Positions 7,207-23,275 are shown, counted from the stretch's first letter. The stretch is 47,797 nucleotides of DNA from a virus (IMGVR_UViG_2571042438_000008); one strand, 5' to 3'. Numbers and translations: made by a program. The notes: a model not told the origin generated them from the letters alone.

Positions 7207-7216
7207 AGGATTGAGC

Positions 7217-7564
7217 ATGTGGACGGTACTTTTTAGCCAGCGATTTGACGACTGGCTAAATGAGCAAGAAGACGCTCTTCAGGAAAAGGTTTTGGCTGAT
7301 TTGAAAAAGCTACAGGTTTACGGACCTGAGTTACCCAGGCCATATGCCGATACCGTAAAAGGTTCTCGGTACAAAAATATGAAAGAGCTTCGCGTTCAGT
7401 TTTCTGGCCGTCCGATAAGAGCCTTTTATGCGTTCGATCCGATTCGTCGGGCCATCGTTCTTTGTGCAGGAGACAAAAGTAACGATAAGCGGTTTTATAA
7501 AAAACTGGTGCGTATAGCTGAGGATGAGTTTGCAGCACATCTGAACACACTGGAGAGCAAGTAA
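7217..7564 (+). CDS. higB: Type II toxin, HigB-like / RelE-ParE superfamily (phage Gp49-type)
   Basis: 115 aa. The block ..YGPELPRPYADTVKGSRYKNMKELRVQFSGRPIRAFYAFDPIRRAIVLCAGDK.. is typical of the killer-protein family. The toxin-first order with an overlapping XRE antitoxin (ATGA-type junction) fits HigBA. Confidence 0.8.
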   Translation: MWTVLFSQRFDDWLNEQEDALQEKVLADLKKLQVYGPELPRPYADTVKGSRYKNMKELRVQFSGRPIRAFYAFDPIRRAIVLCAGDKSNDKRFYKKLVRIAEDEFAAHLNTLESK

Positions 7565-7863
7565 TGAGAACATTAGATGAGGTGATTGCCAGCCGTTCAC
7601 CTGAAAGCCAGGCGCGAATTAAAGAAATGGCAGATGAGATGATTCTTGAGGTCGGCTTGCAGATGATGCGTGAAGAACTCCAGTTATCACAAAAACAGGT
7701 TGCTGAGGCGATGGGTATAAGCCAGCCAGCAGTAACAAAGCTGGAGCAGCGCGGAAATGATTTAAAGCTGGCGACATTAAAGCGTTACGTTGAAGCTATG
7801 GGAGGCAAATTAAGCCTGGATGTTGAGCTTCCTACAGGAAAGCGAGTAGCGTTCCATGTCTAA
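7564..7863 (+). CDS. higA: Type II antitoxin, HigA-like XRE-family HTH
   Basis: The HTH is LSQKQVAEAMGISQPAVTKLEQ. The start overlaps the toxin stop. Confidence 0.8.
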   Translation: MRTLDEVIASRSPESQARIKEMADEMILEVGLQMMREELQLSQKQVAEAMGISQPAVTKLEQRGNDLKLATLKRYVEAMGGKLSLDVELPTGKRVAFHV

Positions 7864-9975: not shown

Positions 9976-11175
9976 TTATGGTCTGCTTTTCTGTGCCAGC
10001 TTATCAGCACATGTTTTTATCAGATCCTGTAGTGTCCTGGCTGGCAGGTTTGCATCCAGTACGCTGAGTATGCTGTTGTGATCTGCTTGGTCGACTACTT
10101 TGCCTGTCGGTGGTAGTAGCTTGAGCTGAGGATTCAGGTTTTCGTCAAAGCTGATAAGTGCTCTGGCGTTTCTGAGCAGATCAAGAAGTAAGGCTGATAT
10201 CACATTTTCCTGAGTCATTGCTGGCAGACTTAGCGCCGCTTTGGTTTTCCCTGTTGCCTTGTCAAACTCCTTGATTAGTTCCTTCCTGTAGTTCGGTTCC
10301 GTTAATAGCCGATTATGCTCTGTTGCCGCGCGGATAATCGTTTTTTCCTGGTATAGTCGTTTAGCCAGATCACGCTCGTACTGTGTTTTTAACACGCTGC
10401 TGATAGCGTTAAAGGCTTCAATGTAGGCCAGCTTGATATCTTTCACGCCTGGACCGTCGATGCTCTCCATGAGCAAGGTAAATCCGTCTTTTGTCATGCG
10501 ATAGATTGTTATTTCGCGGTCGCTTCCTTCCAGCGGTCGTTGCTCTTTAAAGAAGTGACGCGCCGCAGCCGTGCGAGGAATGCGTAGCGCATCGATGGCC
10601 ATAACGATGGAATTGTTTGTGGTGCTGAATGCCTGGGCAACATCGGCTGAGGTTGTGAGTGGCTCGTTGTTGCACACTTTAATGTAAAACATCGGTTTGG
10701 CGTTGAGCGTATCGACAACCTCACGAGCATTGCTTGGCGAGACGGTTACGGTCGCGGCCGTTTGCGCGTTCCGGCTGAAATAGCAGTCTTCCAGCCGTTC
10801 GAACACATCCCACGCTTGGTTAGTTTCAAGCATTTTGGCGTGACGTGCAGCCCCGCGTTCTGTCCAGAGAATGAGGGAGCGGGCTTTCGGGGAAATTTGT
10901 AACCCTCTTAAAGATGGTTGCACATTTTGTGAGTTACTTAAAGTAACCCGCAAATTTTGTGAGTGACTTAAAGTCACTCGCAAAGTTTTTAACTCATCGC
11001 CAGCCACTTTGAAAAAATGCTTTCCTTCAATAAAGCGGTTTGCGTTACGTGAGTAATTTTTTTTGATGTTATCAACGTCTGTGCCGTATAGCTTTGCCAG
11101 TAGTTCAGTAGTGATAACGGGGATCTGGTTATGCAGGATAGGCTGTAGGGTGTTAACGGTCGGAAGCGTTTTCAT
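9976..11175 (-). CDS. ant: Antirepressor-like protein (N-terminal ORF6N/KilA-N-like domain + Rha-like domain)
   Basis: The N-terminus IPVITTELLAKLYGTDVDNIKKNYSRNANRFIEGKHFFKV...ILWTERGAARHAKMLETNQAWDVFERLEDCYF is ORF6N-type. The middle EPLTTSADVAQAF..IYRMTKDGFTLLMESIDGPGVKDIKLAYIEAFN is Rha-type. The start overlaps the upstream ORF stop (ATGA). Confidence 0.8.
   Translation of the reverse strand: MKTLPTVNTLQPILHNQIPVITTELLAKLYGTDVDNIKKNYSRNANRFIEGKHFFKVAGDELKTLRVTLSHSQNLRVTLSNSQNVQPSLRGLQISPKARSLILWTERGAARHAKMLETNQAWDVFERLEDCYFSRNAQTAATVTVSPSNAREVVDTLNAKPMFYIKVCNNEPLTTSADVAQAFSTTNNSIVMAIDALRIPRTAAARHFFKEQRPLEGSDREITIYRMTKDGFTLLMESIDGPGVKDIKLAYIEAFNAISSVLKTQYERDLAKRLYQEKTIIRAATEHNRLLTEPNYRKELIKEFDKATGKTKAALSLPAMTQENVISALLLDLLRNARALISFDENLNPQLKLLPPTGKVVDQADHNSILSVLDANLPARTLQDLIKTCADKLAQKSRP
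10921..10980. repeat. Two tandem 30-bp repeats inside ant, each holding a 5-bp-arm palindrome (GTTAC-TTAAA-GTAAC / GTGAC-TTAAA-GTCAC)
   Basis: 10921-10950 and 10951-10980 differ at 4 positions. Two of those differences are compensatory (T:A to G:C) and preserve the palindrome. Confidence 0.8.
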
Positions 11176-11399
11176 TTTGCACCTCCCATAACTACTTTGG
11201 TTACGAGGGAGATTTTTGCGTCAGAAACAGCGTTATCGTTGCTGGCGATGCGCATAGCTTCGCGCTCGATGATTTCAGTCAGGCGGAATTTATCGGCGTA
11301 TGAGGCTTTCTTGAGAAGGATCTTTACGAGGTTGACGTAATAGTCATGGGGTAGGTTTGTCATTGTGATATCTCCAGTATATGGAACTATCACCGCCAT
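11172..11399 (-). CDS. Small protein translationally coupled to ant (position equivalent to P1 icd); alternative start ATG 11363 with a GGAG Shine-Dalgarno
   Basis: 75-aa ORF (63 aa from 11363). Its stop overlaps the ant start codon. I make no family call. Confidence 0.55.
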   Translation of the reverse strand: MAVIVPYTGDITMTNLPHDYYVNLVKILLKKASYADKFRLTEIIEREAMRIASNDNAVSDAKISLVTKVVMGGAK

Positions 11400-11413
11400 T
11401 CGAGGCTAATCAA

Positions 11414-11497
11414 ATGGTGGTGAGCCGTACAGGGTTAGCCTTACCGGACACAATGACGAACCGGCGCGGATTTCTCCGCCCCTGTACGACCCACCAT
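11414..11497 (-). ncRNA. Candidate structured regulatory RNA (c4-like) in the ant operon leader
   Basis: An 84-nt three-way structure. The outer stem is ATGGTGG/CCACCAT (7 bp), the second stem GTACAGGG/CCCTGTAC (8 bp), and the inner hairpins are GCGGA-TTTC-TCCGC (11466-11479) and CCGG..CCGG (11444-11464). The loop segment AGGCUAA (minus-strand RNA) is complementary to UUAGCCU, which occurs in two flanking direct repeats GAUUAGCCUC (11402-11411 and 11567-11576). Confidence 0.35.
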
Positions 11498-11525
11498 AAT
11501 TTGGGCGTAACAGTGCTCTACGCAT

Positions 11526-11545
11526 AAAAAAACCGCTAACGCGGT
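11526..11545 (-). terminator. Rho-independent terminator (minus strand) inside the ant leader
   Basis: On the minus strand ACCGC-GTTA-GCGGT is followed by T7. Confidence 0.65.
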
Positions 11546-11658
11546 ATGCGCCATCGTGTTATTCAGGAGGCTAATCCCGGCCGTAGATTTTGCTACGGCT
11601 CGGAAAGTGTCCACCAATGGCGCATTTATGTCAATACGGCGGGATTTTAACAGAGACA

Positions 11659-11673
11659 ACCACATAGCGTGGG
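11659..11673. promoter_or_regulatory. Near-perfect operator-like palindrome ACCAC-ATAGC-GTGGG in the ant leader
   Basis: 9/10 match to the ACCAC-N5-GTGGT family. It lies beside a minus-strand TAAAAT -10-like hexamer. Confidence 0.4.
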
Positions 11674-11691
11674 TTTATTGGTAGGCAGAAA

Positions 11692-11807
11692 CAAAAAAAC
11701 CGCCCTATTGAGGACGGTTCTTTCGTGCTGATCGGATTCGCGGTCCTTTCAGCATTACGTTGTTGTATAAACAACCACGCAAGCACAAGCAGCAAGTTAA
11801 TTTTACC
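11692..11807 (-). ncRNA. Candidate ~115-nt sRNA (promoter TTGAAG-N16-TATTAC, internal hairpin, strong terminator)
   Basis: Minus-strand features: -35 at 11836-11841 and -10 at 11814-11819; 5-prime region ..ACUUGCUGCUUGUGCUUGCG..; hairpin GTTGTT-TATA-CAACAAC; terminator AACCGUCC-UCAAUA-GGGCGGUU plus U7 (11692-11719). Nucleotides 11779-11793 are the exact complement of plus-strand 12037-12051. Confidence 0.45.
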
Positions 11808-12116
11808 CAAAAGGTAATAATAGTCCACTATTATGCTTCAAAAAATTGTGGTTCTTGTTGTGCCTGCAAACTCACAGATTGTGGGTAGGTTACTGATTTT
11901 GTGAAAATAAACGAGTTTTTTCGTTTAATTTCTTTCCTATTACTAATCTTAAAATAATCGTAAAATACCTGTGGACCTTCCCGCCGATTCGCACCCGGGC
12001 ACCGACTTTAGGGGAGGATTCTCCGTTGCCGTACATGCAAGCACAAGCAGCCGTGCTTGCTCTCGCGTTGTTTTCGTCGGTGGGGATGCCGTGAAACGGC
12101 CTGTAAGGGCCATACA

Positions 12117-12239
12117 ATGAAAAAATACTGTATGTGTATTTTTATCGTTGTTACTGGGGCTTTGTTTACGCCACATGGGGAGGGTTGGAAGATTACTGAT
12201 AACGCTCTGAATGTGACGATAAACATTAGCAGCAAGTAG
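12117..12239 (+). CDS. Small hydrophobic peptide (40 aa), candidate type I toxin or small membrane/secreted protein
   Basis: MKKYCMCIFIVVTGALFTPHGEGWKITDNALNVTINISSK. A strong plus-strand terminator follows immediately. A TAAAAT -10-like hexamer at 11961-11966 would give a ~145-nt structured 5-prime UTR. The Shine-Dalgarno is weak. Confidence 0.4.
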   Translation: MKKYCMCIFIVVTGALFTPHGEGWKITDNALNVTINISSK

Positions 12240-12244
12240 CGATT

Positions 12245-12268
12245 AGGCCCCTTCGGGGGCCTTTTTTT
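12245..12268 (+). terminator. Rho-independent terminator (plus strand)
   Basis: AGGCCCC-TTCG-GGGGCCT followed by T7. Confidence 0.8.
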
Positions 12269-12278
12269 ATGGCTGAAT

Positions 12279-12428
12279 TTAAACGCTGGAGCGCATTAAG
12301 CCTTTCAGAACTGCTTCACGTACCCATTCTGGCCTGGTGGATAGCAGGGCAAATAAGCAGCCAGCTTGCAGCCGTTTGAGGTCGGTTAGACGAGTTTTCA
12401 GTAACCGTGTATATTGTTGCTCGGACAT
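12279..12428 (-). CDS. Small hypothetical protein (49 aa from ATG 12428)
   Basis: AAGGGGA Shine-Dalgarno 8 nt upstream. It is the last gene of the par operon direction. Confidence 0.4.
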   Translation of the reverse strand: MSEQQYTRLLKTRLTDLKRLQAGCLFALLSTRPEWVREAVLKGLMRSSV

Positions 12429-12490: not shown

Positions 12491-12739
12491 TTACTTCTGG
12501 TTGTATTGAGCCTTGAGTAACTCAAAAGACTTTGTCAGCACTTCTTTCAATGACATATCCATTGAGCTGGCGAACGTTTTGTACTCGCGTTTAAATTCAG
12601 GGTCGACGTTAAACGCCATTTGTGCCCCACCTGATTTGGTTCTGGTTGGCGTTTCAGTCGGGTCGAAAACCTGCGGTTGTTCGATCGATGGCGGTACGCC
12701 TTTGCTGTTCTTCTTTGGTGGTTTTGATGGTGCGGCCAT
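12491..12739 (-). CDS. Small partition/centromere-binding protein, ParG/omega-like (disordered N-terminal tail + RHH-like C-terminus)
   Basis: 82 aa, directly downstream of parA. The C-terminus MAFNVDPEFKREYKTFASSMDMSLKEVLTKSFELLKAQ has a beta-alpha-alpha pattern. Its size and position fit type Ib par systems. Confidence 0.6.
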   Translation of the reverse strand: MAAPSKPPKKNSKGVPPSIEQPQVFDPTETPTRTKSGGAQMAFNVDPEFKREYKTFASSMDMSLKEVLTKSFELLKAQYNQK

Positions 12740-12751
12740 GTGTATCCCCTC

Positions 12752-12786
12752 TTATATAAATCTATAAAACTATAATTATATATTAT
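12752..12786. repeat. AT box (TTATATAAATCTATAAAACTATAATTATATATTAT) between parA and the parG-like gene
   Basis: Member of the dispersed AT-box family built from TATAATTATA and ATAAATCTATA words. Confidence 0.7.
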
Positions 12787-13451
12787 GCGGCAGTAGTCAG
12801 AGCCTCAAGCTGGTTGATAATCCCCTGAATAACGTCGTCTGCCTTTTTGCGTGGCGCAACGTATGAGCACTCAATGAGGCTTAAGCCCTTATCCTGAGCT
12901 TTGCTCAGAGCTGGCTTGTGGGGAATGTACTTATCGACAACAAAGTATGGCGTATTAGCCAGGTACTCTTGGGCTTCAATATAGTCAGCTTCGTTTTCAG
13001 CCGCGCCGGAAAACACCATGCAAATTTTCTTGATTGGTACACCCTTTTTAACGATGCCGTGAGCAGTGTTAACGGTGGTTTCCAGGTCATCGGTAGAGAA
13101 TCGGGTTGGCAAAATAACCATATCCAGAAATTCAGATAGCTTCGGTACTGATTCAGATGCGTAGGCACCGCCATCGACGATAACCAGGTCGTATACTTCT
13201 GATTCGATGATTTTCTGGACTTGTGATGGTGTGCCGCACGGCTGCGCCGCGATTGCTGGTTCGATATTGTTGGCCATTCTGCGTTGTACCCAACGCGTTA
13301 CCGTTCCGTTAAGCACATCCATATCGATCAGGCATACATTCCAGCCAGCCTTTGCATAAGCAACTGCTAAAGCACGGGCAATTGTTGATTTGGTTACGCC
13401 GCCTTTTCCGTTGAAAATACCTACAGAGATAGTCATTTGTCGAGGCTCCAT
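12783..13451 (-). CDS. parA: Partition ATPase ParA (type Ib, deviant Walker A)
   Basis: GKGGVTKST Walker A box. 222 aa with no N-terminal HTH extension. Confidence 0.9.
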   Translation of the reverse strand: MEPRQMTISVGIFNGKGGVTKSTIARALAVAYAKAGWNVCLIDMDVLNGTVTRWVQRRMANNIEPAIAAQPCGTPSQVQKIIESEVYDLVIVDGGAYASESVPKLSEFLDMVILPTRFSTDDLETTVNTAHGIVKKGVPIKKICMVFSGAAENEADYIEAQEYLANTPYFVVDKYIPHKPALSKAQDKGLSLIECSYVAPRKKADDVIQGIINQLEALTTAA

Positions 13452-23199: not shown

Positions 23200-23275
23200 G
23201 GCCCCTTAGCTCAGTGGTTAGAGCAGGCGACTCATAATCGCACGGTCATCGGTTCAAATCCGGTAGGGGCCACCA
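23200..23275 (+). tRNA. tRNA with anticodon CAU, tRNA-Ile2 (ileX-like) rather than Met
   Basis: A 76-nt cloverleaf, GGCCCCTTAGCTCAGTGGTTAGAGCAGGCGACTCATAATCGC..GGTTCAAATCC..GGGGCCACCA, with the anticodon at 23233-23235 and an encoded CCA. The 5-prime half is identical to E. coli ileX as I recall it. The acceptor stem has C4-G69 and C5-G68. Confidence 0.9.

Follow-up and report, generated by a model that had tools for sequence, protein, structure and literature searches.

What is encoded by the two small divergent transcription units that lie between positions 11692 and 12268 of the viral sequence IMGVR_UViG_2571042438_000008? This stretch of 47,797 nucleotides (nt), which was analyzed whole and is called the window below, is a phage-plasmid of myovirus type. 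A preliminary description of the locus had proposed a divergent, trans-encoded type I toxin-antitoxin pair, made up of a 40-amino-acid (aa) hydrophobic peptide and a small RNA (sRNA) complementary to the 5' untranslated region (5'UTR) of the peptide mRNA. This proposal was supported by a match to the RNA family ryfA, by similarity to the toxin TimP and to the antitoxin RNA TimR, and by co-variation of the two pairing segments. Taken together, the data indicate, with a probability of about 0.9, that the phage-plasmid carries at this locus a type I toxin-antitoxin module of the timPR (RyfA/TimR) kind. The timP/TimR system of Salmonella and Escherichia coli has been described by Andresen et al. 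(2020; PMC7667032), Eleftheraki and Holmqvist (2024; PMC11228461) and Eleftheraki et al. (2026; PMC13000454). RyfA is the mRNA from which the small toxic inner-membrane protein TimP is translated, and the divergent sRNA TimR (STnc2070/RyfB) represses timP translation through its 5' end, which pairs with 18 nt of the 5'UTR; the pairing was proven by compensatory mutants and in vitro translation (PMC7667032). The toxicity of TimP, the lower stability of TimR in comparison with timP mRNA, the leader pseudoknot and the structural switch all have an experimental basis (PMC7667032, PMC11228461, PMC13000454). In E. coli K-12, RefSeq places timR (b4811), ryfA (b4440) and timP (b4812) between sseA and sseB.

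The plus-strand transcript was compared with Rfam in a scan of the whole window. Positions 11971-12267 matched family RF00126 (ryfA) over the full length of the model (positions 1-296 of 296; 141.8 bits, E = 1.7e-36; gathering score 80 bits), which delimits a putative timP mRNA (RyfA RNA) of about 297 nt. The hexamer TAAAAT at 11961-11966, 5 nt upstream of the first matched position, is the candidate -10 element, and K-12 has TATTAT in its place. The intrinsic terminator (12245-12268) consists of a 7-bp G+C-rich stem (12245-12262) followed by T7 and corresponds to the terminal hairpin of RF00126. Between them, an open reading frame (ORF) of 40 codons plus stop, MKKYCMCIFIVVTGALFTPHGEGWKITDNALNVTINISSK, occupies 12117-12239 and starts at +147, as in K-12. 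These three elements, and a leader hairpin at 12037-12060, were all found as they had first been described. The plus-strand gene is a homologue of timP/RyfA, diverged and unannotated.

The peptide had been thought to lie outside the known toxin families, a view that the alignments overturned. BLASTP aligned it end to end with K-12 TimP (36% identity, E = 4e-8; 38% identity in a multiple alignment), and its only NCBIfam match was NF040796, toxic_TimP (E = 7e-5, 23 bits), below the curated cut-off of 45 bits, which is an annotation threshold and not a biological criterion. Peptides of relatives scored 22-29 bits against the same model, and TimP of the Yersinia pseudotuberculosis plasmid pGDT4 scored 47 bits. 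Peptides on related viral and metagenomic contigs were 64-67% identical to the window peptide, and the pGDT4 protein, named TimP by the Prokaryotic Genome Annotation Pipeline (PGAP), was 51% identical; such graded intermediates link the window peptide to annotated TimP. In all compared peptides a hydrophobic block at the N terminus gave way to a polar tail, with a mean Kyte-Doolittle value of 2.3-2.4 over residues 4-17. No Pfam match was obtained for the 40-aa peptide, Pfam being without a TimP model, and a protein database search with it returned two clusters only, because such small ORFs are rarely called. By these alignments the 40-aa ORF is a diverged TimP and represents no new family.

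The leader was compared with the published model, which has four stem-loops (SL1-SL4), SL2 being the TimR site and SL4 trapping the Shine-Dalgarno sequence (PMC11228461, PMC13000454). A pseudoknot between SL1 and SL3 is indispensable for the translation of timP (PMC11228461, PMC13000454), and a contact between sites 2 and 4 frees the Shine-Dalgarno sequence (PMC13000454). All of these published regulatory elements occur in the modelled window leader. They were assessed in an alignment of nine leaders, namely those of the window, seven mobile relatives and K-12, in which 97.8% of the cells over 36 pairs formed standard pairs, in comparison with 36-45% when the partners were slid by 1-3 columns; six pairs were changed on both sides. 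SL1 (11976-12017) had an outer helix that was 100% paired in the nine homologues, with one compensatory pair. SL2 (GCAAGCAC-AAGCAGCC-GTGCTTGC; 12037-12060) aligned to SL2 of the Rfam model, and its helix was 97% paired. SL3 (12063-12094) holds pseudoknot site 3. SL4 (12096-12113), which was placed by the Rfam alignment, was 91% paired, with two pairs changed on both sides, and is predicted to sequester the Shine-Dalgarno sequence AAGGG (12105-12109). The pseudoknot helix, formed by CACCGAC (site 1, in SL1; 12000-12006) and GUCGGUG (site 3; 12076-12082), was 100% paired in the nine homologues and differed from that of K-12 (CGCUGGC/GCCAGUG) by two compensatory pairs. Likewise, site 2 (GCCGU, 12028-12032) and site 4 (ACGGC, in the 5' flank of SL4, 12096-12100) were paired in 100% of the cells, K-12 included.

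These leader data bear on whether the plus-strand transcript could be mainly a regulatory RNA for host stress or virulence, with the small ORF incidental or non-toxic at its native level and the minus-strand RNA serving to tune RyfA. RyfA was originally described as a non-coding sRNA, stress and virulence phenotypes have been reported for ryfA mutants of uropathogenic and avian pathogenic E. coli, and native de-repression of TimP was not growth-inhibitory in Salmonella (PMC7667032). However, the ORF was intact and open in all relatives, with pN/pS (the ratio of nonsynonymous to synonymous polymorphism) of 0.1-0.6, that is, below 1, and with an indel of one codon, in frame, in diverged relatives. 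Moreover, the sequestered Shine-Dalgarno sequence, the pseudoknot and the site 2-4 contact are all conserved, which is sensible only if translation matters. We therefore regard a purely regulatory RyfA as improbable, and a translated timP mRNA remains the preferred reading.

The minus-strand RNA was identified by homology in nhmmer searches and by its fold. The putative TimR-like antitoxin sRNA, about 102 nt long, runs from 11793 to 11692. It begins with a single-stranded 5' pairing segment (nt 1-18, GCUGCUUGUGCUUGCGUG; 11776-11793), for which 18 pairs with the timP leader are predicted, continues with two hairpins, the second of which carries a conserved box (GGAUUCGCGGUCCUUUCAGCA in plus-strand reading), and ends in an intrinsic terminator (AACCGUCC...GGGCGGUU plus U-run; 11692-11726). 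This terminator, a 3' hairpin in the minimum-free-energy fold with U7 after it, was almost invariant among relatives. The hairpin and strong terminator noted earlier on this strand thus belong to a 104-nt RNA that folded far better than shuffled controls (-43.5 kcal/mol, z = -6.3). Searches with the window RNA found the two K-12 copies of TimR, one of them the annotated timR b4811 (E = 1e-7 and 6e-7), and the predicted folds of the window and K-12 RNAs showed the same hairpin arrangement. The order of elements in the K-12 locus was also the same: terminator, conserved box (GGTTCGCGGCCTTTCCAGCA in K-12, GGATTCGCGGTCCTTTCAGCA in the window), hairpin and target-complementary 5' end. No Rfam model for TimR matched in a permissive scan of 11300-12400. 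By homology and predicted fold, the minus-strand RNA is a homologue of TimR. The K-12 sseA-sseB locus (L002, 1516-1790) itself holds a second TimR-like copy at about 1682-1790 on the minus strand, together with a 5' remnant of ryfA in overlap with the IS128 RNA of Rfam. Of the two TimR copies, the one more distant from ryfA is the annotated timR, and its 5' end matches the leader of ryfA.

For this sRNA, the preliminary description had named the promoter TTGAAG-N16-TATTAC (11841 to 11814, minus strand). The hexamers are present, but they were not conserved in relatives and were rejected as the main promoter. A consensus scan pointed to a different probable timR promoter at 11800-11827 on the minus strand, with TGGACT as -35 (11827-11822), a 16-nt spacer and TAAAAT as -10 (11805-11800); these hexamer positions were kept in diverged relatives and in locus L017, which has TAGACA-N16-TAAAAA. 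With this promoter, the sRNA probably starts at about 11793, exactly where the complementarity begins, as in annotated K-12 TimR, and about 15 nt further downstream than the earlier promoter would imply.

The minus-strand RNA lies directly upstream of isrK/C4 (11599-11413) and an anti-repressor gene, in a place where it might act as the leader or attenuator of this immI-like operon and not as the partner of the peptide gene. However, the RNA has a strong terminator and homology to TimR, and it travels with timP rather than with immI. In many relatives a helix-turn-helix (HTH) gene on the opposite strand separates it from isrK, and in L017, where the immI region is on the opposite side of timP, the TimR-like RNA still adjoins timP. 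An immI leader is thus a very improbable explanation in comparison with a TimR antitoxin.

The complementarity between the two RNAs was then considered. Two exact copies of the 15-nt sequence GCAAGCACAAGCAGC, and no more, were present in the 47.8-kb window (11779-11793 and 12037-12051), as had been reported for it. The number of chance matches expected with up to two mismatches was 0.16, and for an exact 15-mer common to a 150-nt leader and the 650 nt upstream an arithmetic estimate gave about 1e-4. The TimR target (12034-12051, plus strand) comprises the 5' arm and loop of SL2, at leader positions +64 to +81 (+67 to +82 in K-12). The earlier extension to 17 of 18 matching positions was also correct, and the odd position is a G.U pair in RNA, so that sRNA nt 1-18 and leader +64 to +81 can form 18 uninterrupted pairs with one G.U. 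The predicted energy of this cognate duplex was -35.9 kcal/mol, versus -21 kcal/mol with the K-12 leader. Over the loci compared, cognate duplexes reached -34 to -41 kcal/mol, while crosses between mobile-type and K-12 partners gave -20 to -25 kcal/mol, which is the background level. Given these weak mobile x K-12 energies, the plasmid system is predicted to be insulated from the chromosomal timPR.

The pairing segment changed in concert on the sRNA side and the mRNA side over about 30 related loci, taken from E. coli phage-plasmids, Yersinia phages, IMG/VR contigs, metagenomic contigs and Logan contigs. Five alleles were present in the phage-plasmid clade (plus strand): GCAAGCACAAGCAGC, the window type; GCA(A/G)GCACAAACAGC, found for example in the ATCC 25922 plasmid and Yersinia phage vB_YpM_39; CACGCAAGCACAAGCGG, the JE86-ST05_p3 type; ATGCAAGCACTAACCTG, in L017 and L159; and ACTCGTA(T/G)GCACAAGTAAGC, in L172. 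More alleles occurred on other plasmids, with pGDT4 and a Serratia plasmid having their own TimR/SL2 matches of 20-21 nt, and the K-12 version of the segment is GCAGGTG(C/T)TTCACAGC. Natural co-variation of the two segments provides independent, though indirect, support for sRNA:mRNA pairing.

Concerted change of both copies would also be expected if they were protein-binding DNA sites, such as operators, iterons or centromere-like sites, that co-evolve with the specificity of a protein, and the copies are indeed direct repeats about 258 bp apart around a divergent promoter region, near a partition locus. However, the small RNA with the terminator always carries one copy at its 5' end and SL2 contains the other, alleles differ in the length and register of the identity (11 to 21 nt), and the single differences between copies are mostly G.U-compatible, which is relevant to RNA and not to a DNA site. 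The homologous Salmonella segments, moreover, act by RNA-RNA pairing, as compensatory mutants showed (PMC7667032). DNA sites therefore have only a very slight probability, and RNA pairing is the reading kept here.

Further loci were sought by several searches. A genome-contig scan with the 15-nt TimR box GGATTCGCGGTCCTT gave chance matches only among the loci returned, none of which passed nhmmer. A viral-contig scan with the same box also gave mostly chance matches, and the nhmmer filter yielded four new loci (L146, L159, L172 and L155). A metagenome scan with a 27-nt leader pattern added nine loci and no new alleles. With the window as query, blastn in 'distant' mode failed to find chromosomal ryfA; in the opposite direction, from K-12, the search reached the phage-plasmids and uncovered the copies on conjugative plasmids. 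Between allele groups, identity was 91-97% in TimR, 82-83% in the leader and 97-99% in the ORF, and 45-52% in the spacer between the divergent promoters of timR and timP (11794-11970). The par genes were within 91-100% identity, a range that also takes in the flanking RNAs. A nearly replaced spacer and a leader more diverged than the ORF suggest mosaic recombination inside the module.

The context and distribution of the module were also investigated. The window encodes a tail fibre, large terminase, major head protein, tape measure, CI-like repressor and anti-repressor, and its structural half was 98-99% identical to Escherichia phages vB_EcoM-613R2 and vB_EcoM-473R2 as well as to Yersinia phages vB_YpM_39, 41 and 44. 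Its relatives are circular, non-mobilizable plasmids of 46-52 kb in E. coli, E. fergusonii, E. albertii and Klebsiella aerogenes. The timPR module was found in 59 PLSDB records, with the neighbouring ParA locus in 58, and also in three Yersinia phages. Among 5,426 complete E. coli genomes it was present in 72, and 73 of its 74 places were on plasmids. The module is flanked by the immI-like region (isrK, C4 RNA and anti-repressor) on one side and the ParA gene on the other; it is a core feature of the 46-52 kb phage-plasmid family, near-universal there and always adjoining ParA. It was not annotated in any inspected E. coli plasmid or Yersinia phage record, including the plasmid of the reference strain ATCC 25922, where the module lies at about 12560-13145 of NZ_CP037450.1; for the peptide, this is because its NF040796 score is under the cut-off.

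The neighbouring regions were inspected as well. On the minus strand, the TimR terminator is followed directly by the P1-immI-like anti-repressor unit (11413-11612, plus ORFs 11399..11172 and 11175..9976). It contains an isrK RNA (11599-11526) and a C4 antisense RNA (11501-11413), a c4-a1b1 target-family match that stays below threshold (36.7 bits; gathering score 46.7), and ORFs for a 75-aa protein (phrog_7886) and a 399-aa anti-repressor/Rha-like protein. Relatives that are 80-83% identical, including the ATCC 25922 plasmid and Yersinia phages, have a plus-strand gene for an HTH-domain protein of about 175-190 aa between isrK and the TimR terminator (L004, 956-1528; L006, 998-1525; L007, 956-1528; L003, 4395-4934), and this gene is missing from the window. 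A type II pair at 7211-7863 (plus strand) may be a second addiction module; its HTH_3 antitoxin gene (99 aa) begins within the gene for a Gp49/HigB-like toxin (117 aa, PF05973). A perfect 14-nt inverted repeat, CTGAATTTAAACGC/GCGTTTAAATTCAG, has its left arm just past the timP terminator (12273-12286) and its right arm within an 82-aa ORF adjoining parA (12587-12600), the arms being 300 nt apart; the left arm has a C-to-T change in most relatives, without a compensating change. A tRNA-Met (CAT) gene is located at 23200-23275 (plus strand).

How might the module work? The molecular mechanism is transferred by homology from the Salmonella experiments, and for the present locus it draws on sequence, structure and co-variation only. 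An mRNA of about 297 nt would start near 11971, and its 146-nt leader would fold into the four stem-loops, with SL4 hiding the Shine-Dalgarno sequence. The SL1-SL3 pseudoknot and the site 2-4 contact would be needed to free this sequence, so that the 40-aa TimP-like inner-membrane peptide could be translated. The divergent TimR-like RNA of about 100 nt (11793 to 11692) would form an 18-bp duplex between its single-stranded 5' end and the 5' arm and loop of SL2 (12034-12051); SL2 would be opened, the active conformation destabilized and translation blocked. On loss of the plasmid, the less stable TimR would decay before timP mRNA and the toxin would be made, and no rescue of the plasmid-free cells by chromosomal TimR is predicted.

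Since the module adjoins par, is core to the family and is predicted to be insulated from chromosomal TimR, it may have a role in retention of the low-copy plasmid-prophage through a TimR-repressed membrane toxin, for which we estimate somewhat less than an even chance. Post-segregational killing or abortive infection, both suggested at the outset, would be possible effects of the module. It is doubtful, and rather unlikely, that the locus is a working addiction module, insulated by its re-coded pairing sequence, that kills or cripples cells losing the plasmid-prophage.

Several points weigh against these interpretations. In Salmonella, deletion of timR at native expression left growth unimpaired and gave no persister or P22 phenotype (PMC7667032), so killing sufficient for post-segregational selection is not assured. 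The HigB/Gp49-type type II pair, 4 kb from timPR, could already give addiction. Identity of the peptide to K-12 TimP is only 36%, and its score is under the NCBIfam cut-off. For the timP promoter, the consensus scan reported no convincing -35 and no full sigma-70 site, and both the expression and the toxicity of the window copy are predictions. By helix counts, the three closest alleles would still cross-pair via G.U wobbles. This cross-pairing counters a further candidate idea, that close alleles have mutually orthogonal specificities, which was rejected; strong diversifying selection was likewise unsupported.

The biological role of chromosomal timPR was stated to be unknown (PMC7667032). 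If the addiction-module interpretation is true, the timPR family, whose chromosomal copies are not known to have a phenotype, would gain its first clear biological function, and the pairing alleles might also decide which related phage-plasmids displace each other without triggering the toxin. A timPR module fixed in a low-copy phage-plasmid, beside par and not predicted to pair with host TimR, is a natural place for testing post-segregational killing, and the alleles found in nature can serve as compensatory mutants for both the TimR:SL2 pairing and the pseudoknot. The family, geometry and mechanism are already known, and PGAP has already given a plasmid gene, that of pGDT4, the name timP. 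The novelty is modest and consists of a diverged timPR clade that is systematically unannotated, is fixed in a phage-plasmid family and has natural pairing alleles. A literature search found no paper on plasmid- or phage-borne timPR, its coverage being incomplete, so that absence is unproven.

The module can be compared with several known systems. Its geometry had at first been likened to tisB/istR-1, shoB/ohsC and zorO/orzO, and these pairs do share with it divergent genes, a small membrane toxin and a short stretch of sRNA:5'UTR complementarity lying far upstream of the ribosome-binding site. They are not related to it in sequence, and no Rfam relation to them was found in the permissive scan of 11300-12400 (E up to 10), which gave ryfA, C4, isrK and c4-a1b1, plus weak chance matches only. 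Rfam includes models for the antitoxins of all three systems. The paper on TimP drew the same comparison (PMC7667032). The tisB, shoB and zorO mRNAs need processing, and the tisB and zorO sRNAs block a ribosome standby site, while timP mRNA is unprocessed and under structural-switch control (PMC11228461). Unlike in the tisB standby-site mechanism, TimR would open SL2 and disturb the pseudoknot-dependent switch.

Plasmid R1's hok/sok system is likewise a plasmid-borne type I membrane toxin system, and it provides the functional model for the proposed post-segregational killing. Killing and stabilization have been demonstrated for hok/sok and would be predictions for the window copy. Sok is a cis-encoded, overlapping antisense RNA that acts via mok, and the Hok peptide and mRNA fold are unrelated to those of the window. 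The sRNA gene of the window lies about 180 bp from the timP mRNA and does not overlap it, which separates the locus from the hok/sok type.

Closer relatives are the mobile timP genes of pGDT4 (IncFII, conjugative; 'small toxic inner membrane protein TimP' in PGAP; timPR at 3850-4450 of L186) and Serratia plasmid pJSRIV001_1 (timPR at 3990-4450 of L187). Their peptide clade, 51% identical to the window peptide, has SGALLS..G.GGW.IS.NS..VTIN.SGK in common, and a TimR-like RNA with its own 20-21 nt SL2 match lies upstream, as in the window layout. Both plasmids are conjugative, with the module near transfer or insertion sequence (IS) genes, whereas the window is a non-mobilizable phage-plasmid with a further diverged peptide (TGALFTPHGEGWKITDNALNVTINISSK). 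On pGDT4, timPR lies near the relaxase and transfer genes, with a truncated second copy just upstream; on pJSRIV001_1 it lies near IS6 elements.

The chromosomal timP/TimR is the reference for all of these. The window copy differs from it in location, beside parA and an immI-like region on a phage-plasmid and not between sseA and sseB, and in its peptide, which is 36-38% identical, below the cut-off in NCBIfam and unannotated in the inspected records. Its pairing sequence also differs, and no pairing is predicted between it and either TimR or the timP leader of K-12. In other respects the two are alike. Both belong to ryfA, with an ORF at about +147 for a peptide of 38-41 aa that has an N-terminal hydrophobic, signal-like segment, and in both a divergent sRNA, about 100 nt long, uses its 5' end for pairing with some 18 nt of SL2 (about +65 to +82). 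The two leaders share four stem-loops, an SL1-SL3 pseudoknot, a site 2-4 contact and a sequestered Shine-Dalgarno sequence.

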